Positions 752 to 32,897 of a DNA stretch of 32,897 nucleotides are shown here, piece after piece (position 1 is the first letter of the stretch; every line of letters starts with the position of its first letter). The stretch comes from Reclinomonas americana ATCC 50394. Lineage: Eukaryota. A model generated the notes under the pieces. It ran no database searches. It was given only the letters and a program-made list of their open reading frames with translations, and had not been told where the DNA came from. The DNA lies in the NCBI GenBank assembly GCA_048213135.1, contig PS015013.1:233218-266114 (forward strand), given 5' to 3'. The translations under genes were made by a program, and so were the position numbers.

Positions 752-3435
752 TCATATTCTGGGTGGCGAGGTGGCCTCACGGAGCGGCACTCGAGCCTCC
801 TCCGGTGAGCTGAGCATGCGGGGTGTGGGTGGTGGCGACGGCGATCGCGGTGGCGTCTGCTGTGCTCGTCTCTGTCGCCGCTGTCGACGCGGCTTCTTGG
901 TGGGCGGCCGTCGTCGACATCTGCAGCATGCGAATGGCAGCCACACGTCACCGTCGTGGAAGAAGCACGTGTACACGAACAAGCCGAGGGCGCACACGGG
1001 CAGGAGTATGGTGGCCAGCATGAGTGGCGATATTCCACCACCACTGCCCCTGGTGGCGCCTGCATCACTGCCACTGCCACTGGAGGCCAGTACGGCACAC
1101 CACTGCACGACTACGGGGTACGAGGACTGCGCTTGGTATAGGAGACAAGTCAGTTGTCGTTCAGTCGCGGTGGCCTCGAAGCTCACGCAACAGTCACCAC
1201 GGAGGCGTAGCCGGGGTCGCACTCGCATGCCAACGTGGTGTTGGCTGCCGGGCGGGAGTGTGGCGCGGTGCAGTTTGCACGGATGCCGGTGGCGGCGGCT
1301 GCGGCCGAGTCGATGATCAAAGTGTCACTGTCGCTTCCGCTTCCGCTTGCTCCCCCCGTGTTGCCACTGGTCGTGTTGGAGGTGACTGCGCGTTGCACAC
1401 ACGAGTTCAGCGCCGCCTGTCGCACTTGGTCGCCGGTACACGACACTGTTGGTTCGCACTGGCCGCTCAGCGGGTTGTAGTAGTCACGCGCTCCATTGTA
1501 CTTGGCGACGCAGCCGACGGCAGTCGGTCGGCACGACGCCGTCGCGGAGTCGAATTGCTGGTCCACCGTGCACGCATCCTGGCAGTAGAGACGACCCTGA
1601 ACAGTGACTGCACGCCGAGGTGCGACGCAGGTGGTGCTGTTGGTGACCAGTGCCGACGCGGTCTCCTGAAACCAGCCCACAGTGGAGAAGTCGACGCGAC
1701 CCGTGGCTGCGACCACCCCGCGCTGTCTCACGGTGACTGCGCAGTATCCTGTGGCCTGCAGCACTTGCTGTGCGCGAGAAGAACGTGAGCAAGGAAAACT
1801 CTTTCATCCACACACAATCGCAACACACCTTCGCGGTGACGACAAACAAGAAGCGACGGGTGCTATTGGCTGCCACCGACTGCTCCACTGGTGGTGACAC
1901 GTCGAGCGGCTGCACGCACACAGAAGTTGGAATGGAATATGCACGTCAGAACACGCACAGAGCACGCACCGTGCAAGTGGAGTTGCGCTGCAGGCAGCAG
2001 TCAGAGACGGTCGTGGCAAATGCCGCGGCGGTGGTGCCAATGTTTCTGACATCGACCGCCACGAATGCATCTGTAGCACCGGCCACGAACGGTAGCAGGG
2101 AGGCAGCCGCGATGCTTGGTCGCCCGTCGACCTGACGCACACTGATCGACGAGGTGCTGAGCCGCAGAATCACGTCCACGCTCCCGGCAGCGCACTTTAC
2201 TGCGACTTGTCCATCCGAAGCACTGTGTCGAGTATCGTGTGAGTTCTTTTCTGTTGTTGTAGAGAGCGAACCCATCTCTGGCAGAACGCACGTGGTGCTG
2301 TCGGTGCAGCCTGTGAGTGCCGCCCCACTGGCCAATGTTGCAGCTCGAAACGGCGAAAACTGATCGTACAGTGAGGCATTCGGCAACTGGGTGGGATCCA
2401 CGCTGGGCGCACGACAAGAGAACGCTGCCGACCAGGCGGCATCGCTCACGCCGATCTGGTTCTTGGCCGTACCGATGCGCGACTTGGGCACAAGGAACGA
2501 CGACGAAACGTCCATGTCACGCACGAGCGTGTAATCAATGGCCACCTGTCGGAGGTCTTGTACTCGCTGCATGATGGCGTTGGCGGAGGCCTGTGTCGCG
2601 AGTTAGGCATTGCGATGTGGACAAACTGAGAGAGAGAGAGAGAGGCCAGGGGAGGGTCACACAACTGTTAGCACATTGCGCACCAAAGCCTCGCGGGTCG
2701 ACTCGGTGAGTGTGGTGGTATACGATTGCGCGGTGCCACTCTGCGACGCAGTCACTGCGATGGAGTAACGCAGTGTCGGCGCTGACAACTCGAACGCCAA
2801 GTACGTGGTGCTGTTCCGCGCGACATCGTACACGCTAATGTCGGTACCGTCGGAGTGGACACAGCACACCGACGCCGTCGGACACGTGAACGACGATAAG
2901 GCGACTCGCTGTCGGCGTCGAGTGTAGGCATTGCGCAGTGTGGTGGGTGGAGAACTCAGTCCGTACACTGTTGTTTGGACACGGTCAAGGATTTCGAAGA
3001 AAAGAGGATCGAGCTTCCTCACTCACCGACGCTCCAGTCTTGAAGCGCAACAGTGACAGCAAGCGGCTCTGTCAACGACCACATGGTGGCACCACCGGCG
3101 GCGTCCGGAATCAACTCGCCTGCGACACACACAGTTAGTCGCGCGCACAGAAACGAGTCGTGCTCCGTCGGCGCTCACTTGGATCCACGCTGAAGGAGAG
3201 AGTCGAGTCAGAGGCCGCATTTAACGTCGCCGCCACGATCAGCGTAGGAGAGCAACCCGTGCTGCGTGTTGAAGATCGATGATGATGAGCAGATGCGAAC
3301 GCGAACACAACACACGCGCAGTCAGTCGCCACACCTCCCGCTGGCACACGGCACGACTTGAAGCGATACGGCCTCGCCTAGTGTAGCCACACAGGCGAGA
3401 AGGATGATCAACGCTGCCGCAACTCGCAGGCGCAT
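752..3435 (-). CDS. HAP2: HAP2/GCS1-like class II fusexin (gamete fusogen family), divergent; about 9 exons; signal peptide, domains I-III, Cys-rich stalk, TM, basic tail
   Basis: ATG at 3435 gives signal peptide MRLRVAAALIILLACVATLGEA. Spliced segments follow the HAP2 order: CSPTLIVAATL; LTEPLAVTVALQDWSVVYGL; YLAFELSAPTLRYSIAVT; FLVPKSRIGTAKNQIGVSDAAW…CRAP (cf. HAP2 V.K…CNKIGVSY.AF…C..P); and Ig-like domain III SVDVILRLSTSSI…GRPSI…FVA…VAVDVRNIGTTAAAFATTVSDC…QSVAANSTRRFLFVV…CAVTVRQRG…VDFST. TM LMLATILLPVCALGLFVYTCFF; TGA at 752-754. Confidence 0.8.
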
Positions 3436-3655
3436 CGCAGTTTTGGCGAGAACGGGTGAAAATGGCGGCAGGACGCGAGCACCATCCACTACTGTGCGTG
3501 AGTAGAGAGAGAGTGCGTCAGTCGCTCTGTGCGTGGTAGCTGTGCGTGTGTGTGTGTGAGAGAGAGAGAGGGTTGGTTGCTATCCTCTGTTGATTGGGGA
3601 GAGCGTGTGCATTTGTGTGTGTGTGTGCGTGAGTTTGCGTGTGTGACTTGCCACC
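3436..3655. promoter_or_regulatory. Short head-to-head intergenic region (probable bidirectional promoter) with GA/GT dinucleotide runs
   Basis: 220 bp between divergent ATGs at 3435 (-) and 3656 (+). The role is inferred from geometry only. Confidence 0.4.
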
Positions 3656-6126
3656 ATGGGCCAGTGCTGCGGTGCACGCGAACGACCGCGTGCGTCGTCG
3701 CACTCGGAGCCAGTGCAGCTGCCTCCGCGGTTTCCCTCAATGACTGATTTCGCGGCGGTGCCTGAGATACCCGGTGACGGCAATCGCCAGTCTCGCGGAT
3801 CGCGACCCGCCGCCAAGCCCGGCTCCGTGCCGCCACCCTCCGTGCCCGATTCGTTGCTCCGTCGGCGATCGTCGGGAACTGCAGCGTCGGATGCCGCCGA
3901 TCCAGAAATCACTGGCGACGGAGATGGGAGCACGTCGCAGCTCGACTCGGAGCACGCGTCGCAAAGCAGCCACCCATCGGCAGTGTCGCAGCGTATCCTC
4001 GGCGTCCCGCTTCCCGAGTCGCTCATCTGCGACTACTCTGTTCATCAGTTTTGTATCTTTTCCACCGTATGCATGCATTGCTGGTGGTGGCTCATTGCTC
4101 CCGCGCGCGCGCGCGCGCACAGTTCCATGTTTGCGGTCCCGCGATTCCCGTTGGCCATCCTTCGCGAACTCCACGAGCGCAGTTGCGTGCGCAGTGTTCT
4201 CGTCGTCGAGGGAGCAGCAAGATGCTCACACACTTGCCACGCATTAGTGTTTGCCGATCCTCGCATGCCGTGGGTGCCGCCTGCGGGGCGTTCCGTCGAG
4301 CTGTCGGAGCTGCGCTCGTTGGTGAACTCGCTGCCGAACAGCGGCGACCGGTGTCTCTGGGGTCCCTTTATGGCAGCCTGCAACGACCAAATGTTGATCG
4401 ACTTGCTCATTATCTGGCTGGTATGACTCTCCTCGTTGTTTATTTGTTGCATGCACTCACTCACTCACTCGCTTGTGTACGCACTGTGCACCAGAACGAG
4501 TTGCCGACGCCTTTGTTTGGCTCGTTGGAGCGGCTAGCCTGGGACCCGAACGGAGTTGAGCCGCCGTCTGATGCGGCTCTGGCACTATTCTTGCGAGAAC
4601 AGCTGACGCCGCCGGCGCTGAGTATGCTGTGCCATCTTGCGCGTTGCGTGGCGTGTGTGTGTCCTCTCCCCGCAGACCGCGTCTTGCTTGTCTCTCATCT
4701 CGTGGCGCAGATATCACATCGCTCGCCGCCCACTCGCGATTGCGCAGCCACCCTTCGCATCAGGCGGCCAGCGTCGCCGTCGCCGAGTGGTTTGTCGCCG
4801 TCACGCACACCGTCGCCTGCTTAACAGTCCCCCTCACCCTCTTCTCTGTGTGTGTGCGCGCGCGCGTCTTGTGCGCNNNNNNNNNNNNNNNNNNNNNNNN
4901 NNNNNNNNNNNNNNNNNNNNNNNNNNNNNNNNNNNNNNNNNNNNNNNNNNNNNNNNNNNNNNNNNNNNNNNNNNNNNNNNNNNNNNNNNNNNNNNNNNNN
5001 NNNNNNNNNNNNNNNNNNNNNNNNNNNNNNNNNNNNNNNNNNNNNNNNNNNNNNNNNNNNNNNNNNNNNNNNNNNNNNNNNNNNNNNNNNNNNNNNNNNN
5101 NNNNNNNNNNNNNNNNNNNNNNNNNNNNNNNNNNNNNNNNNNNNNNNNNNNNNNNNNNNNNNNNNNNNNNNNNNNNNNNNNNNNNNNNNNNNNNNNNNNN
5201 NNNNNNNNNNNNNNNNNNNNNNNNNNNNNNNNNNNNNNNNNNNNNNNNNNNNNNNNNNNNNNNNNNNNNNNNNNNNNNNNNNNNNNNNNNNNNNNNNNNN
5301 NNNNNNNNNNNNNNNNNNNNNNNNNNNNNNNNNNNNNNNNNNNNNNNNNNNNNNNNNNNNNNNNNNNNNNNNNNNNNNNNNNNNNNNNNNNNNNNNNNNN
5401 NNNNNNNNNNNNNNNNNNNNNNNNNNNNNNNNNNNNNNNNNNNNNNNNNNNNNNNNNNNNNNNNNNNNNNNNNNNNNNNNNNNNNNNNNNNNNNNNNNNN
5501 NNNNNNNNNNNNNNNNNNNNNNNNNNNNNNNNNNNNNNNNNNNNNNNNNNNNNNNNNNNNNNNNNNNNNNNNNNNNNNNNNNNNNNNNNNNNNNNNNNNN
5601 NNNNNNNNNNNNNNNNNNNNNNNNNNNNNNNNNNNNNNNNNNNNNNNNNNNNNNNNNNNNNNNNNNNNNNNNNNNNNNNNNNNNNNNNNNNNNNNNNNNN
5701 NNNNNNNNNNNNNNNNNNNNNNNNAGCATTGGAGTGTCGCTCTTCCGGGCGCCGACAACGGTGATCTCGTTGCACAGCGCAGCCACCCGCTGCACCATGT
5801 CGCTGCTTCTCAATGTCGAGCGATTGATGCCGACTGCGTACACGAGTGTTCTTCATCGCATGCCGCCCCTGCCTGGCTTCCATAGCCACGAGGGCGAAAT
5901 TGCACACAGCGGCCAAGGTCTGTTCATCCTCCTCCGCGCGTCGCACGCACAAACTGCAGTCTGACACGAGCACACAGAGGACGCCGTACTCGCCGCCAGC
6001 CGGTCGTCTGCCTCGTCACCCGCCTCCTCGGCTGCGTCGCCAGTGCACCACCATGTGGCACTCGAAGATGTCGAAGTAAGCTTCTCTAACCCACTGCAGT
6101 CCATGGTACCTCCGTCATTCTCTTGA
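3656..6126 (+). CDS. RhoGAP-domain-like protein with N-terminal MGxCC acylation motif (multi-exon, spans an N gap)
   Basis: ccaccATGG start giving MGQCCG. RhoGAP-like motifs in order: ILGVPLPE (cf. FGVPL), VPRFPLAILRELHE, LLIIWL|NELPTPLF (cf. LLK.FLRELPEPL), QLTPPALSMLCHL. After the gap come SIGVSLFRAP and MSLLLNVERLM (cf. FGPTLLRP…LI.N…IF). Last exon EDAVLAASR…PPSFS with TGA at 6124-6126. Confidence 0.6.
4877..5724. other. Assembly gap (N run). Other gaps: 6292-6311, 11794-11813, 12521-13218, 25734-25810, 26445-26464, 30177-30196, 31777-32602.
   Basis: Runs of N. Confidence 1.
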
Positions 6127-6231: not shown

Positions 6232-9200
6232 TCACTTCTTGCCCTTCTTGCCGCCCTTGCCCTTCTTACCACCCTTCTTCCCCTTCTTGCCNNNNNNNNN
6301 NNNNNNNNNNNGCCACCGTCCTCGTCGACCTCAATCTTCGGCAGCTTCGGGTAGGTTGGCACGAGATCGTTGAACGCCTGCGCAATGCCGATAAGAGCAA
6401 GTGAGTGCTCTCATCTATAGCACACGCACACGCACACAGAGGACGTGGTGTTTACGGACCTTGAATGCCTCGGCATTGTGCTGATACATGTAGTGCTTGT
6501 TCATGCGCGCCAGCTCCAGCAGGAACTCTTCGTCGTGCAGCGGAATGTCTTCCATCTGTCGAGACAGGTCAGCGACGATTACAGTGTGTGCTGTGGTGCG
6601 AGTGAAGGGCACCCGCACGCAACTCGAGCCAAGCGCTTGGTGGTGAGAACTCGGCGAATCGCCCGTACCACCTGTCATGACAGAGAAAGAGTGTGAGCTC
6701 CTCTGGCTCATGAAAATGTATCGAGTCATATCTGCACGGACGCAACTCCGCCACTGCTGAACCCGTGCGTAATGTATGCAAACACTTGCGGATGCAACGC
6801 GTGCGGCATGGGCACGCCGCACTTGACAGCCGTCTCGCGCCACAGCTTCTGCCGCGTCTGATATTGCGGCAGCCCGAGATACAGATGTGTGCCGAAGCTG
6901 TCCACCAGCGGTTTCTCGTTCCGTGCACGATGACCAGGGTAGGAAGTCAGCACGTAATCAACAAGTGCGCACGAGGGGATTACGATGCAGCAACATATCT
7001 TCCACTTGCGAGGTGTTGCCAATGACCATCACTCGCGGAATGCGCTTGACCTCCGTGAGATGGTGATCCTCTCCCGACAGGGACGACATGGACACCTTGT
7101 CGCGAGACTGTCAGCTCATCCTTGCCTTTGGTAGGTGGAGACACACATACACACCTCCTTGCCGAGTGCGTCCCACAAGAACTTCTTGATGCGACTCGCT
7201 GGCAACGACGGCACATCCGACGGCACACCGTCTGCGCCCACCAGCGACTCTGTGGGCTCTGGGGCCGCAGACTTGCCCTTCTTTCCCTTCTTGCCTTTCT
7301 TCTTGCCCTGCGAAGAATAGAACGCGTGTCATGCATGGGCGAGGTGGCGGGTGAGGGACAGGATGGCGTGGCGCGCAACTCCTGCATCCACAACGACCTG
7401 ATGCACTTGATCAATGTACACCACAGCCGGTACGTCGAGATGTGCGGCCAGCTGCGCATCTGTGAGTTTCTCTCTCTTTCTCACGGAAAAGCTCTTCTCC
7501 ATCCACACACACCTTGAAGACGGCGTCGGTCATGTACTTGGTGGCGGCCTCCGAGTCGGCCAGCTTGCCGTAAATGTTGGACGGACTAAAGTCGAAGAAC
7601 AAGGCATTGGTGTCGTTGGCGGCCGCGTATGAGAGCATCGTCTTCCCGCTGCCACTGGGACCGTACAGCAGCACGCTCTTGGCTGCCGGGGCATACAGCA
7701 TGTCGCAACCGAGCGGATACACCACCTTCTCCACAAACAGCTGTCGCACCTGAGCCAAACTCGGCTCAGGTAGCGGCTTTTGCGGTGGCGGCGCTTCACC
7801 CTCGGCCAGACGCTGCGGCTTCAGAGCCTCGTCGACTGCCACCTTCTCGGCCAGACCGGCCAAGTTGTTGAAGTCGCAGATAAAGTCACTGACACTCACA
7901 GAGGGGATCTGCGCACACAATGCATTCACACTGATCAGCTTGTGCGGCGCGAGTACAGCATTGAACGGCAGTGCCACCGACGCACTCGACGAAGGAGTCC
8001 GAGTGAGAACATTTCCGTGAGAAGCTTGCGATCCTCGTCGTCTTGTTCGCGCATGGTCTTTAGCACTGTGCGAGAATCAGAGTGAGTATCTCGCAAGACT
8101 TCAGTCATCGGCGTCGAACAAGCTCTCACCAACAGGAGCCTCCTCCTTGACCTTCTTGCCCTTGGCGCCCTTCTTGCCCTTCTTCCTGCACACGTGGCGA
8201 GAGCGCATGTCAACACCGATGTAATGATATGTGTGGAAGCAGCAGCACATGTTACGCACCCTTTGGCACCCTTGCCTTTCTTTCTGCACCACAGAAGAGA
8301 TCACACGCACACACGTACATGAGTGACATCACATGGCATCAAGCCTTCCGCACACTTGAGTACACCAGTACCACACCCTTTCTTTCCGCTGGCGCCCGGA
8401 TCGCCCACCAGTTGAGCCTTGAGGTTCTCCATCTCCATTTTCAGCAGCAGATCAAGATCGGCGTTGGCCTACACGCTCGCCCTCCGTCAGTTCTCACTTC
8501 ATGCCGGTGACAAGTTAGGTGTGCACCCACTCACCTCGGCCTGCACTTCCTCCTTGGCCCTCTGTCGCACAATGTCCAGCCGGTACTTGTGTTCGTGCTC
8601 CGCCATGTCCGACTCGGCAGCCTGCCACTTGCTAATGTACTGCTGCAGGCTGTCGCTGATGACTCCAGTGACAGCTGGGTTCAACACTTTCTCCTCCGGT
8701 GGCCCCTGCACTGCGAGTCAGACGCGCACCGCTGGCACCTGGCGATCACGAAAACGCACCTCATCGTCGCCGCCCTTGTCCTTCTTGCCCTTGCCTTTCT
8801 TGCCCTTCTTGCCCTTTTTGCCCTTCTCGCCCTTGCCTTTCTTGCCCTTTTTCCCCTTGCCACCCTTCTTGCCCTTCTTGCCTCCCTCTTCCTCGTCGTC
8901 TGCGCGGCGACGAGAGATGATGGCACGTGTTGGCGAGTGATGATGAGAATGCACGACAAGAGCAACAAACAGTCGACATACCTGGGTCGCCCTTCTGGTA
9001 CTTTTCCGGATGCTCCAGCCGATCCAGCACGTACATGTATGTGCTGTTGGGTACGTCGCTCGGCGCGACAGGAGCGCCTTCGGCGGGAGGTGGCGGCCCT
9101 TCAAACTCGAGAAACGTACACACACGCCAGTCAAGGACAACCACCAGCGAACATGAGATTGACAAAGAGAGGAGGAAAAAGCACACAAAAGGATATTCTC

Positions 9201-10588
9201 CAGTCGCACGCCAGTTGCTGATGATCTTTTCGACGAATTCCCGCGACCTCTCCTCCGTGTACTCCGACTTCATCTGCTCACGCACTCTGCAGCACGTACG
9301 GGAGCAGTCAGCGTGAAATCATACGTACTCGCACAACATCAAGTCGGGTGCACACAACTCTCGTTTGATCTGCGTGATGGTCATCTGCAGCTCCTTCTCG
9401 TACTGTTGCTGGAGATTCTTCTTGCGTGCGCTCACGTCATTGACATGCGTACGCAGGGCTGTCAGCTTGTCGCGAGGTGGAACAAGACCCAAGAACACCA
9501 GGTCGTCCTGCTGGAACTGGCGAGCGGCCTTGCGAGCTCGGTGCATGCGCCATCTGCCGCACAGCGAGTACGGTGAGAACGAGCTGGGAGCGCCTCGCTC
9601 CTGCCTACCGCACACATGACGCACACTGACTGAATCTTGGTGGCCGCTGCATCAATGTCGACATCGAAACGACCGGCAGTGAATGAGTGATGACTCTGCC
9701 CGGCATCCTCCTCGGTGATGCGTCGAATGATGCGCGCACGCTGACGACCCTGGCGTCCACGCTCGTTCCGTTGCAAAATGAGCACCGCCTCCTGCACAGA
9801 AATCGCGCGCTCGGTGTACACGTCGCGCAGCTGGAACCCGTCCGTCGGCATCGCCTGCGTCAGTGGACCCGAATACTGTGCAGCCACGGCATCGAGCCAC
9901 GCGCGCTTTTCAGAGTACACATTGCGCCCCTCACGGAAGTACCGCGGAACGGGCAGGTGCAGCGCGATGGGATCGACTTGCAAGTCCACCAGATGATCGT
10001 CGAAATTGATGTAGGCGCCCTTATGCTCCACCAGACTCTGCGCCCCGAGCAAAACCTCATCAGTCACACCGCTGCGCTCCCCCCAACCTTTCAGTAACAC
10101 ACGCACGTCTTTGAGTTCCACTGTGCGATACATCACCGCCTCGAGCAGGCGCCGCACAAAGGCGCGCTTCTGCGGTTGCATGATCTGTGCGAGGCCGAGA
10201 CATCAGTATTGTGGCAGTTCTCTCTCCCTCTCTCCCTCTCTCCCTTACACACACCTCATCATGGGCGCGCTCCAGTCGTCGCAAGAGGCCAATGTAGACC
10301 AAGTACTGACGCTCGCGCAGTGGCAGCTGCACCTTGGGATCGGGATTCTGCCCCACAGAACCCATGATCAGCCACCACGCACACTCTCCCTCTCTCTCCC
10401 TCCCTCTCTCCGCCACACACCGCATACAGTGCCGCGACCTCGGGCACCGCCGGCTGACTGCCCAACTCCCAGATGGCCCGACGAAGTTCTTCCTCCGCAG
10501 ATCTGTGCGTGTCAGTTGAGTTCCACGCACACACACACACACTACACCATCTGCGTGCGCAGGCAGGCCAACGCAACGCGCTCGACAT
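6232..10588 (-). CDS. IQCA1: Dynein regulatory complex subunit 11 / IQ and AAA domain-containing protein (IQCA1/DRC11), multi-exon
   Basis: N-terminal signature YIGLLRRLERAHDE|IMQPQKRAFVRRLLEAVMYRTVELK…FDDHLVDLQVDP.ALHLPVPRYF. IQ-like motifs AVLILQRNERGRQGRQRA and AATKIQ, KKGK-rich linkers, and AAA Walker A SVLLYGPSGSGKTML…ALFFDFSPSNIYGK. Ends …GKKGKK with TGA at 6232-6234. Start ATG at 10588 is inferred. Confidence 0.9.
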
Positions 10589-10709: not shown

Positions 10710-25104
<14,395 letters not shown>

Positions 25105-29202: not shown

Positions 29203-30132
29203 TCAGTCTGCGGGTACCTCCACACGCGGCTTGTTCGGATTGTTGGCCAGCAACCAGTTGGCGAGCCACGCCTGCACGGAAGAAAGTAAGCGACAGCGCA
29301 CGCTCCAAGACCTACAGTGAGGTGACTGACCACCGGCTGTGCGGGCTTCTCCTTGCACAGCTCCGTGAGCGCCTGTCGCAAAATCGTCGACAGCCTCTCC
29401 TCCATGACCTCACGCGCCTCCTTGGGTCCCAACAGCGGCACACTCACTGCAACGCAACGCACCAGTGAGTATGACACAGAGAGGAGAAGAGAAGCAGAAC
29501 AAGAACACACACCCGAGGGGAAAAAGTACTTGATCTCGCGTCTTGCGCTCTCGCTGCTGTCGCTTCCGTGCACCGCATTGTACGTCGTGTCCGTGCCGTA
29601 CTTGGCACGCAGTCTTTGGCGCCGCACATGTGAGCGCCTTGAGCAAGAGAGCAAGAGAACAAGAGTGTATGCGCAACGAGTTGGGATGGTCTCGACGCGC
29701 CACCTCGACATTCGTCGGTCCCATCAACGCGCGCCAGTCCTTGATCGCGTTCTCCTTGGCCAGCACCAGCACACGCACCGGTCCACTCGTCATAAAGTCC
29801 ATCAGAGTCTCATAGAAACGCTTGCCCTGTTCAACAGCGTTGAGATGAAGAGTAACAAAATGAGTGTATATCAAGAAGGGCACCTCATGCTCGGCGTAAA
29901 AGCCAGCAGCGCGCTCTCGTGTGAGCTGCAGTCTTTGCTCGGAGACAATGACAAAGCCGGCCTCGCGCAAGTCATCGCGAATGGCCTCCTCGTAGCCTGC
30001 GCGCACTGCGTCTGGCTTGATAATCCCAAAGGTCTTTTCCACGTTGGCGAATGATTGCACCTGTGAGTGAGCAGAGAGAGAATGAGAGAGAGAGCAGTGA
30101 GCAGAACAGGAGTGAGGAGCACGCACCGACAT
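29203..30132 (-). CDS. NME5: Nucleoside diphosphate kinase with C-terminal Dpy-30 domain (NME5/RSP23-type radial spoke NDK)
   Basis: MS|VQSFANVEKTFGIIKPDAV…FYAEHE|GKRFYETLMDFMTSGP…AIKDWRALMGPTN…LRAKYGTDTTYNAVHGSDSSESARREIKYFFP, then Dpy-30 motif LSTILRQALTELCKEKPAQPV|AWLANWLLANNPNKP. TGA at 29203-29205. Confidence 0.9.
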
Positions 30133-30479
30133 GTTGGGTAACGGGGGGGGGGGGGGGGGGGGGGTGCGACGGCGGTNNNNNNNNNNNNNNNNNNNNTCGG
30201 CACCCAGTGGCCAGTGGCGTGCGGCCTGCAATAACCAACGGTGAGACACTGCAGTGAAGCAGGATGCAAAGATCGACTCACCAACACCGGCACACTACCA
30301 CTACTCCAGCGGGGTGCGCGCACGTGTGCGGTCCACACGTGTCGGAGCTCGGCAACCAAGGCCGACGGCATGTTGTGGTCGTCGTGGTGGTACTGCTTGT
30401 CGGCGTCACCACGGCGTCGGGCACTGGTACCTCTACGACGTCGGCCACCTCGCCTGCAACTGGCGGCAGCATGCATGGA

Positions 30480-31376: not shown

Positions 31377-32897
31377 TCACGATTTCGCGTCCAGACCCAG
31401 CACAGCATCACACATGGCAAGAAGATTGCGCGCTTCGTTGACACAATAGTCGCACAAGTCGCGCTCACTCTCGCACAGTGCGCGCTCTTGCAGACTGAAC
31501 ACAGTCGACTGGAACTCTTCCGCCCTGGCCTTCCTCCTGCGGAGTTCAGCGACAAGCGGGTCGTTGGCAGGAAGCTCCTCTCTCTCCCTGCAGCGGCTCT
31601 CGACTTGTTCCAAGACGCGCACAAATCTGTCGTGCGCCTCGGGCATCGTGACCTGCAGCAGCTCGTAATCAGCAGCGCTCAGACCAGCGACCAAGCCTGG
31701 CGCCACAGCTGGCGTTGATCCTGCGGCTGCAGTGGGGGGCAGAGTAGCAGCAGACAAAGCTGGCGCTGCAGCTGGCNNNNNNNNNNNNNNNNNNNNNNNN
31801 NNNNNNNNNNNNNNNNNNNNNNNNNNNNNNNNNNNNNNNNNNNNNNNNNNNNNNNNNNNNNNNNNNNNNNNNNNNNNNNNNNNNNNNNNNNNNNNNNNNN
31901 NNNNNNNNNNNNNNNNNNNNNNNNNNNNNNNNNNNNNNNNNNNNNNNNNNNNNNNNNNNNNNNNNNNNNNNNNNNNNNNNNNNNNNNNNNNNNNNNNNNN
32001 NNNNNNNNNNNNNNNNNNNNNNNNNNNNNNNNNNNNNNNNNNNNNNNNNNNNNNNNNNNNNNNNNNNNNNNNNNNNNNNNNNNNNNNNNNNNNNNNNNNN
32101 NNNNNNNNNNNNNNNNNNNNNNNNNNNNNNNNNNNNNNNNNNNNNNNNNNNNNNNNNNNNNNNNNNNNNNNNNNNNNNNNNNNNNNNNNNNNNNNNNNNN
32201 NNNNNNNNNNNNNNNNNNNNNNNNNNNNNNNNNNNNNNNNNNNNNNNNNNNNNNNNNNNNNNNNNNNNNNNNNNNNNNNNNNNNNNNNNNNNNNNNNNNN
32301 NNNNNNNNNNNNNNNNNNNNNNNNNNNNNNNNNNNNNNNNNNNNNNNNNNNNNNNNNNNNNNNNNNNNNNNNNNNNNNNNNNNNNNNNNNNNNNNNNNNN
32401 NNNNNNNNNNNNNNNNNNNNNNNNNNNNNNNNNNNNNNNNNNNNNNNNNNNNNNNNNNNNNNNNNNNNNNNNNNNNNNNNNNNNNNNNNNNNNNNNNNNN
32501 NNNNNNNNNNNNNNNNNNNNNNNNNNNNNNNNNNNNNNNNNNNNNNNNNNNNNNNNNNNNNNNNNNNNNNNNNNNNNNNNNNNNNNNNNNNNNNNNNNNN
32601 NNGGCGGCGGCGGTGGTGGTGGTGGTGGTGGTGGTGGTTGCTGATCTGGTGGAGTGGCAGCTGCAGAAAGTGTGTGGAAGGAGGCGCATGAGCGAGGGTT
32701 ATGATACGCAGTGGGAGAAGTGGCGAGCGCCAGTTGTAAGTGTAACTTGCAGCAGTGATCGGAAGCACCAGTGGTTGAAGCAGCCACTGCTCTGGAAGCG
32801 GAGGAAGTGGAGGAAGTGGTGCAACGTGCTGCAACACAGATGTGGGTGGTGCGCTGATACAAAGGAGAACACCAGGGACGGAGTTGATCTCACCTCC
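31377..32897 (-). CDS. 3' part of a Pro/Ala-rich protein ending in a small helical domain (GAT-like is only a guess); spans an N gap and is truncated by the window
   Basis: Intron GAG|GTGAGA…TTGCAG near 32830-32893, then an exon ending in poly-Pro. After the gap, PAAAPALS…EAHDRFVRVLEQVESRC…LVAELRRRKARAEEFQSTVFSLQERAL…DAKS with TGA at 31377-31379. Confidence 0.5.
   Translation of the reverse strand, partial: GGEINSVPGVLLCISAPPTSVLQHVAPLPPLPPLPEQWLLQPLVLPITAASYTYNWRSPLLPLRIITLAHAPPSTHFLQLPLHQISNHHHHHHHHRRRXXXXXXXXXXXXXXXXXXXXXXXXXXXXXXXXXXXXXXXXXXXXXXXXXXXXXXXXXXXXXXXXXXXXXXXXXXXXXXXXXXXXXXXXXXXXXXXXXXXXXXXXXXXXXXXXXXXXXXXXXXXXXXXXXXXXXXXXXXXXXXXXXXXXXXXXXXXXXXXXXXXXXXXXXXXXXXXXXXXXXXXXXXXXXXXXXXXXXXXXXXXXXXXXXXXXXXXXXXXXXXXXXXXXXXXXXXXXXXXXXXXXXXXXXXXXXXXXXXXXXXXXXXXXXXXXXXXXPAAAPALSAATLPPTAAAGSTPAVAPGLVAGLSAADYELLQVTMPEAHDRFVRVLEQVESRCREREELPANDPLVAELRRRKARAEEFQSTVFSLQERALCESERDLCDYCVNEARNLLAMCDAVLGLDAKS

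Follow-up and report, generated by a model that had tools for sequence, protein, structure and literature searches.

The window analysed here, 32,897 nucleotides of contig PS015013.1 from Reclinomonas americana ATCC 50394, carries on its minus strand (positions 752-3435) an intact, intron-rich gene for a predicted type I membrane glycoprotein. In our judgement this gene is probably a member of a branch of the HAP2/GCS1 fusexins that has diverged strongly and has so far no annotation, with fusion of gametes or gamete-like cells as the most likely setting. Among gamete fusogens only HAP2 is conserved widely, and it serves as a genomic marker of sex in protists in which sex has not been observed. 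We infer that cell-cell fusion is the most likely function of the product and gamete fusion its most likely context. The gene is thus put forward as one for a candidate cell-fusion protein; with respect to sex it is a hint, not proof. A reading of the same DNA made from the letters alone (hereafter the sequence-only reading) had proposed a divergent HAP2/GCS1-like class II fusexin. This proposal is supported at the level of the protein family by the predicted fold of one relative (P0005), the Pfam PF10699 score of another (P0006), and full-length collinear homology.

The list of open reading frames (ORFs) shows long open stretches across three minus-strand frames between 3435 and 752, and the whole protein is present in no single ORF, as the sequence-only reading had remarked. 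Within the limits given by that reading, between the ATG at 3435 and the TGA at 754-752, eight exons were rebuilt. They are separated by seven introns of 59-93 nt each, all of the GT...AG type, and the spliced frame of 2208 nt is open over 735 codons (735 aa), so that a spliced gene at this position is borne out. Homologue alignments cover every exon and show no gaps at the junctions; it is because of this full-length homology to relatives that we accept the exon chain. The donor of intron 7 can be placed at any of three GT sites, all in phase 0 and lying within 9 nt, and the choice among them alters the product by one or two residues. An in-frame intron of 72 nt within exon 5 was considered and rejected, because homologues retain the strand before a conserved Cys that its removal would delete.

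Relatives were sought in an exhaustive phmmer library of 1,835,955,588 protein cluster representatives (1.84 billion). With the ORF of exon 5 (218 residues) as query, 18 proteins were obtained at E≤1e-3, and P0003, P0005, P0006, P0007, P0008 and P0018 (505-858 residues) have the architecture of the window product. The spliced product was compared by phmmer with 25 retrieved proteins at a Z equal to the library size. The closest full-length relative, P0005, was matched with E 2.3e-39 (product residues 8-660 on 10-663) at ∼26% identity over aligned columns, followed by P0003 (6.7e-37), P0018 (1.2e-31) and P0006 (2.4e-30). The Cys, G, Q and CC positions that are conserved in the family are kept in the window protein.

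Members of the family are spread over Amoebozoa, a jakobid and other eukaryotic assemblies. The amoebozoan Balamuthia mandrillaris has two, P0003 and the longer P0026, which are 91% identical, while P0018 is ANDGO_03688 of the jakobid Andalucia godoyi, the source label of which refers to likeness to an Acanthamoeba hypothetical protein; all these named Balamuthia and Andalucia members carry the annotation 'hypothetical protein'. More distant relatives are transcripts of the trebouxiophyte Stichococcus. P0003 and P0026 lie on different contigs, and the shorter annotation is without the N-terminal strands; the pair may represent alleles, recent duplicates or a mis-annotated start. The literature searched gave no mention of ACA1_048430. 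A maximum-likelihood tree of 14 rows (quick search, midpoint-rooted) separates a five-row green-alga-like clade from a nine-row clade that includes the window protein, with 98% support in the SH-like approximate likelihood-ratio test (SH-aLRT). Inside the nine-row clade the window protein has no settled position and the branches are very long. The best identity of any relative to exon 5 is at most 41%, and a metagenome contig scan with exon 5 gave 357 pattern matches of which none was confirmed, which indicates that the lineage of the window is poorly sampled. Word-indexed searches returned no homologue for exon 5 in the 'longer' length setting, only its own first sequence for the family alignment A1, and only P0003 itself plus P0026 for residues 30-520 of Balamuthia P0003. 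The top match of the exhaustive search, P0001 (5434 aa), was not counted as a member since its match is confined, in each repeat, to the first half of domain III. This protein contains more than 20 tandem repeats of ∼197 residues, each weakly like Ig-like strands of the V.V.N.G type, and its score is the sum of these repeats.

As judged from profile matches, the sequence link between this family and HAP2 appears thin but real. The Pfam model HAP2-GCS1 (PF10699) has 515 positions and a gathering score of 27.4 bits. P0006 and its cluster mate P0019 exceed this cut-off with 43.8 bits (E 1.8e-11, protein residues 300-483 on profile positions 332-501), and P0005 (20.2 bits, 272-436 on 313-472) and P0026 (13.9 bits, 137-196 on 151-199) fall under it; the matches of P0006, P0005 and P0026 are all collinear with the profile. 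The alignment of P0006 with the window product (3-503 versus 7-499) encloses the PF10699 match of P0006, and the chain of homology is therefore continuous.

The predicted fold points to HAP2 as well. An AlphaFold2 model of P0005 was built from a 20-row alignment that included three window exons. The model is almost entirely beta in topology, with a mean predicted local distance difference test score (pLDDT) of 71.5 and 404 of its 691 residues at 70 or higher; the ectodomain blocks mostly reach pLDDT 75-92, the stem is weak and the C-terminal helix is clear. In a Foldseek search over 350,542 PDB chains, ranks 1-8 were all occupied by HAP2 (E 9.4e-18 to 3e-16), with Cyanidioschyzon 7s0k as the best match (9.4e-18) and Chlamydomonas 6dbs, 5mf1 and 6e18 and Arabidopsis 5ow3 at 3e-17 to 3e-16. 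Below HAP2 came archaeal Fsx1 (7p4l, 7.6e-13), then hantavirus and phlebovirus Gc, flavivirus E, alphavirus E1 and EFF-1 (1.7e-9). Viral models reached 1.8e-13 at best, weaker than HAP2. VIA-align gave scores of 13.0 for 5ow3, 12.9 for 5mf1 and 12.7 for 6dbs_B (root-mean-square deviation (rmsd) 4.8 Å over 258 residues, domains I-II), followed by 11.3 for domain 3 of P. berghei HAP2 (model residues 327-431), 10.6 for Fsx1 and 9.9 for a T. cruzi HAP2 fragment. On the strength of this model, the structural link of the family to HAP2 appears strong. An ESM Atlas search with P0005 residues 20-470 had a best score of 0.75 and was uninformative. A three-copy complex prediction for P0005 residues 25-325 scored 0.00, with the alignment unused and the fold uncertain, and has no bearing on trimerisation.

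The topology of the window product was assessed by Kyte-Doolittle hydropathy in 19-residue windows, with 1.6 as the threshold. Windows above this value lie at residues 1-30, the predicted signal peptide, and at residues 640-669, where a transmembrane helix is predicted at residues 643-667 (nt 959-1033); one marginal window (1.65-1.67) was found within the ectodomain, at residues 347-366. By hydropathy, the protein thus has a type I layout with an N-terminal signal, an ectodomain of ∼620 residues, a single C-terminal transmembrane helix and a cytoplasmic tail. In the tail (nt 755-958) a CC.C cluster comes first, then a run rich in Arg and Lys, and last a Pro-rich end, and Cys clusters near the membrane are also present in P0005, P0003, P0018 and P0007. 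The signal peptide, single transmembrane helix and basic tail of the sequence-only reading are in agreement with these hydropathy windows and with the composition of the tail. The two motifs it had singled out, NQIGVS..AW....C..P and V.VRN.G...A.F...V..CC, were both retrieved within exon 5. The 735-residue product contains eight N-x-S/T sequons and 25 ectodomain Cys residues, of which 12 lie in the stem and 13 in domains I-III, ∼12 of these 13 being conserved across the family.

Fusexins are characterised by three beta-rich domains (a domain I barrel, an elongated domain II and an Ig-like domain III), a C-terminal transmembrane helix and variable hydrophobic tip loops (PMC8784728). A domain map of the window product was obtained by transferring the P0005 model through the alignment. 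In this predicted map, residues ∼23-113 and 134-200 make up the strands of domain I together with the first insertion of domain II, and between them residues 114-133 (nt 2846-2905), a loop that joins two long strands and is held by a C...CC cluster, are the candidate cd (fusion) loop. The second domain II insertion (residues 201-326) contains the most conserved block of the family, with an invariant G, an invariant C and the invariant Q of YDQF, and it is followed by domain III (residues 344-450) and a Cys-rich stem (residues 451-642). In the P0005 model, the counterpart stretch 114-129 is a loop between strands 82-113 and 130-147, as read from secondary structure and not from coordinates. Residues 114-133 may therefore form the fusion loop. 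This loop reads V-A-L-S-S-F ... V-C-C-V in the window protein, and hydrophobic residues recur at the tip in relatives (LLF, FF.LI, LFGM, F...L.YY). By topology, block 201-326 would take the place of the HAP2 'ij loop' signature, and by topology only the invariant Gln of YDQF would be the equivalent of HAP2 Q379.

The exons distribute over this map as follows, all on the minus strand. Exon 1 (3335-3435) carries the start codon (3433-3435), which is the sole in-frame ATG downstream of the upstream stop, the predicted signal peptide (∼3370-3435) and the first conserved ectodomain Cys, and it aligns to the N-termini of P0005, P0006 and P0018. Exon 2 (3179-3261, with borders cag ... gtgagc) encodes N-terminal strands that, by analogy with the P0005 model, would belong to domain I; all of its 28 residues are aligned to P0005, six of them identical. 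Further N-terminal strands and the conserved Trp of the family are found in exon 3 (3027-3119), and the first domain II insertion with the NAY motif, the C...CC cluster and an N-x-T sequon in exon 4 (2684-2967). Exon 5 (1970-2590) leads through a variable loop bounded by Cys residues and the final strands of domain I into the Ig-like domain III, which starts at residue 344 (nt 2122) and of which this exon holds the first half. It also contains the most conserved stretch of the family, N231-R269 (nt 2345-2461), with the pattern IG.S..W...F.C ... YDQF..FR. Exon 6 (1829-1909) supplies the middle strands of domain III, and its 27 residues all align to P0005, P0006, P0008 and P0018. In exon 7 (1198-1767) domain III ends (at nt 1681) and the Cys-rich stem of ∼190 residues follows, while exon 8 (752-1126) encodes the end of the stem with a conserved W-C, the transmembrane helix, the cytoplasmic tail and the stop codon TGA (752-754).

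The Cys pattern of the stem is conserved in the family (C..P, YC...C..D, C.P..C..KY.G.R...N...G.C and C.C..G[YWF]), and the exon 7 ORF has no Pfam match at E≤1. The segment C.P..C..KY.G.R...N...G.C gave a weak Kunitz/BPTI match with the family profile A1 (E 0.67-0.7), for which a Kunitz-like disulfide knot in a fusogen stem is a possible reading. P0003 shows a weak EGF_Teneurin match (E 0.045).

Several observations weigh against assignment of the window protein to the HAP2 branch. The Pfam comparison that the sequence-only reading had called for favours the assignment through the relatives P0006 and P0019 but not through the window itself, since none of its six exon ORFs, taken one by one, matches PF10699 or any other Pfam model at E≤1. 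PF10699 is matched by only two of the 20 rows of alignment A3 at E≤1, one of them above the cut-off, and not by Stichococcus P0020. The ORFs of exons 5 and 7 found no PDB sequence at E≤10 by phmmer. Family profile A1, run against 177,635 PDB sequences, returned 15 rows at E≤10 without a fusexin or HAP2 chain among them, the best being tail and transmembrane noise plus the weak Kunitz/BPTI-like stem match. The structural comparison with HAP2, EFF-1 and Fsx1 was similarly divided: the model of P0005 is closest to HAP2, but exon 5 folded alone by AlphaFold reached a pLDDT of 58 and had no Foldseek match at E≤1e-3. This low-confidence model speaks neither for nor against a HAP2-like fold. Moreover, the fold was obtained on P0005, which shares about a quarter of its residues with the window protein as given above, and from a shallow alignment with a predicted TM-score (pTM) of 0.48. 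Global TM-scores to HAP2 are low (0.25-0.42) and the rmsd is mostly above 10 Å, which we tentatively attribute to domain arrangement, as an extended monomer model would be compared with post-fusion hairpins; 7s0k is a monomeric prefusion form of HAP2 (PMC9279424). The Glu of the family's AYE motif, present in most relatives, is Thr in the window protein. Finally, canonical HAP2 has 16 conserved ectodomain Cys in a signature pattern (PMC5332557), as compared to ∼12 in domains I-III of the family.

The published fusexin scheme starts from a monomeric prefusion ectodomain, of which the hydrophobic domain II tip inserts into the opposite membrane, after which the protein trimerises and domain III and the stem fold back, so that the transmembrane anchor is pulled to the inserted tip (PMC8784728, PMC5332557). 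The window protein appears to carry every part that this scheme requires. Its ectodomain would fold into domains I, II and III, and the disulfide-braced tip loop of domain II (residues 114-133, with V, L and F beside an Arg run) would enter the membrane of the partner cell. A trimer would then form, and domain III together with the Cys-rich stem would fold back, bringing the transmembrane anchor to the inserted loop, so that both membranes merge. Acylation may occur at the Cys cluster next to the membrane, and localisation may be directed by the basic tail. The setting would be cell-cell fusion of gametes or gamete-like cells in a flagellated protist.

A possible but doubtful alternative is that the family represents an ancient paralogue that exists beside canonical HAP2 in the same organisms and serves in adhesion, as a bilateral fusion helper or in somatic or plasmodial fusion, rather than as the principal gamete fusogen. 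This would fit the distance of the family from the canonical profile, with most members under the Pfam cut-off and a family profile that finds no HAP2 in the PDB, as well as its specific conserved Cys-rich stem. The Andalucia member is labelled after an Acanthamoeba 'hypothetical protein', although HAP2 has been reported as detectable in the genome of Acanthamoeba (PMC6263441). Likewise, Stichococcus falls into the separate green-alga-like clade, and its fellow trebouxiophyte Chlorella vulgaris has a recognised gene with a GCS1/HAP2 domain (PMC6972661). HAP2 paralogues are also documented in Leishmania, Plasmodium and Dictyostelium (PMC10630298) and in Naegleria (PMC9928731). However, no single genome is shown with both a family member and canonical HAP2, and the divergent Leishmania paralogue HAP2-2 is itself an essential mating fusogen (PMC10630298), so that paralogy would not exclude a role in sexual fusion. 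No HAP2 report for Andalucia or Balamuthia was found in the literature searched, outside of which the supplementary tables of the surveys lie, and the HAP2 in the excerpt of PMC9928731 is that of Naegleria; we count this silence in favour of a derived orthologue.

It is also conceivable, though quite improbable, that the class II scaffold was kept while its work became that of a non-fusogenic surface protein, such as an adhesin, receptor or coat protein. The tip loop of the window protein is short and modestly hydrophobic (V, A, L and F among Ser/Thr, beside RRRQR), the stem is long and Cys-rich like the stalks of adhesion receptors, and the signature residues of canonical HAP2, namely the R185-E126 salt bridge and Q379, which belongs with conserved disulfides to the ij-loop signature (PMC5332557), have no mapped counterparts. 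Nevertheless, the full predicted layout of a fusogen, with transmembrane anchor, stem and three domains, appears to be retained, hydrophobic residues recur in the tip loop across members, and true HAP2s, too, vary greatly in their fusion loops (PMC8784728, PMC5332557). Capture of a viral class II envelope gene, that is, an endogenous viral element, is very improbable: the P0005 model does have high-probability matches to viral class II proteins, Gc of the bunyavirus type among them, but every viral chain ranks under the HAP2 chains in the same PDB search. In addition, the gene has seven spliceosomal introns and ordinary cellular genes around it, homologues occur in Amoebozoa, a jakobid and green algae, and no polyprotein, other viral gene or repeat flank is found nearby. 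It is hardly credible, finally, that the exon chain arose by chance or that the gene is a pseudogene. The collections searched did not yield the gene as a predicted protein, yet its frame is open over eight exons with seven canonical introns, its homology is full-length at E 2e-39, and it retains the conserved Cys, G, Q and CC positions of the family.

A bolder version of the fusogen assignment, which we advance tentatively and as a rather unlikely case, is that the family constitutes a second ancient eukaryotic fusexin lineage, 'HAP2-B', that dates back to near the last eukaryotic common ancestor, is shared by Amoebozoa, jakobids, green algae and the flagellate from which the window derives, and is itself fusogenic. 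The same branch would be defined by the short disulfide-braced tip loop and the conserved Cys-rich stem, and it would have been missed by all sex-gene inventories because its members fall under HAP2 profile thresholds. If this holds, HAP2 would in some cases have been reported as absent from protists simply because it escaped detection, and amoebae that are supposed to be asexual, Balamuthia for instance, would possess machinery for fusing cells.

Inventories of sex genes are built on profile searches, and the authors of such surveys point out that detection of HAP2 is difficult and that divergent copies may be overlooked by their methods (PMC5892394, PMC6263441). The window holds a full-length, intact member of a HAP2-like family of which most members lie under the Pfam cut-off. 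If the family fuses cells, more lineages would have a recognisable fusion machine, and a new search model for 'missing' HAP2s would become available. The family would also offer a natural variant, with a short tip loop and Cys-rich stem, for defining the minimal requirements of a class II cell fusogen. As a repurposed paralogue, the family would show the fusexin scaffold diversifying inside eukaryotes. It would carry more weight if it proved to be a fusogen lineage that is both ancient and independent, or to supply the HAP2 that is 'missing' from several groups of protists.

The window is draft sequence of ∼57% G+C with GT/GA microsatellites, and the HAP2-like gene is tightly packed between convergent and divergent neighbours. 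It is itself free of gaps, and 2530 N in eight gaps (4877-5724, 12521-13218, 31777-32602 and five short ones) interrupt several of the genes around it. The divergent intergenic region of 220 nt between the two start codons (3436-3655), with GT/GA microsatellites, presumably holds the promoter. The plus-strand neighbour (3656-4426) begins with MGQCCG, a possible signal for N-myristoylation and palmitoylation, and has no Pfam match. On the minus strand, an AAA ATPase gene (PF00004, E 6.5e-6) lies at 7411-10202, and an upstream exon of it has an Arg/Gln-rich stretch that may resemble the flagellar IQ-and-AAA protein IQCA1/DRC11. The same strand bears, at 13500-24800, a very large multi-exon gene with ORFs rich in repeats of the GGA(I/L/V) and FxxN types. 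These match the Chlamydia polymorphic membrane protein model PF02415 (E 4.6e-9 at 16001-16873 and 0.0038 at 23599-24774) and also a beta-helix model, and the product is probably a giant beta-helical surface protein. At 29410-30294, also on the minus strand, a nucleoside diphosphate kinase domain (PF00334, 92 bits) is part of a longer ORF split by an N gap and may belong to an NDK-domain protein of the flagellar type. None of the neighbouring genes suggests a functional link to the HAP2-like gene, and Rfam and tRNA scans of the window found none of these elements.

Comparison with known systems places the window gene closest to HAP2. With canonical HAP2 (7s0k, 5mf1, 6dbs, 6e18, 5ow3, 5ow4, 7lr4) it has the type I topology in common, and the three-domain class II ectodomain with an Ig-like domain III is predicted to be alike. 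The conserved Cys/Gln segment of the second domain II insertion would be equivalent in both, and a Cys cluster plus basic tail follows the transmembrane helix in both. The two differ at the tip, where Chlamydomonas HAP2 has a 40-residue bipartite cd loop and the window family a short loop braced by C...CC. They also differ in the stem, which in the window family is long, Cys-rich and conserved and for which exon 7 gives no Pfam match.

Second, divergent genes that act in mating are represented by Leishmania HAP2-2, Plasmodium HAP2p and the two HAP2-GCS1 homologues of Dictyostelium (PMC10630298), and by analogy these would set a precedent for a functional divergent copy. Unlike the window exons, these paralogues carry a recognisable GCS1 domain, according to the same paper. 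Bunyavirus Gc, flavivirus E, alphavirus E1 and EFF-1 (4oje) share the three-domain architecture at Foldseek E-values of 1e-12 to 2e-9; in contrast to the viral class II proteins, the window gene is cellular, spliced and without companion viral genes. Fsx1 (7p4l), which is encoded by an archaeal, intron-less gene, ranks below all full HAP2 ectodomain chains in both Foldseek and VIA-align. What is new in the window gene is a divergent variant within the known HAP2-type fusexins.

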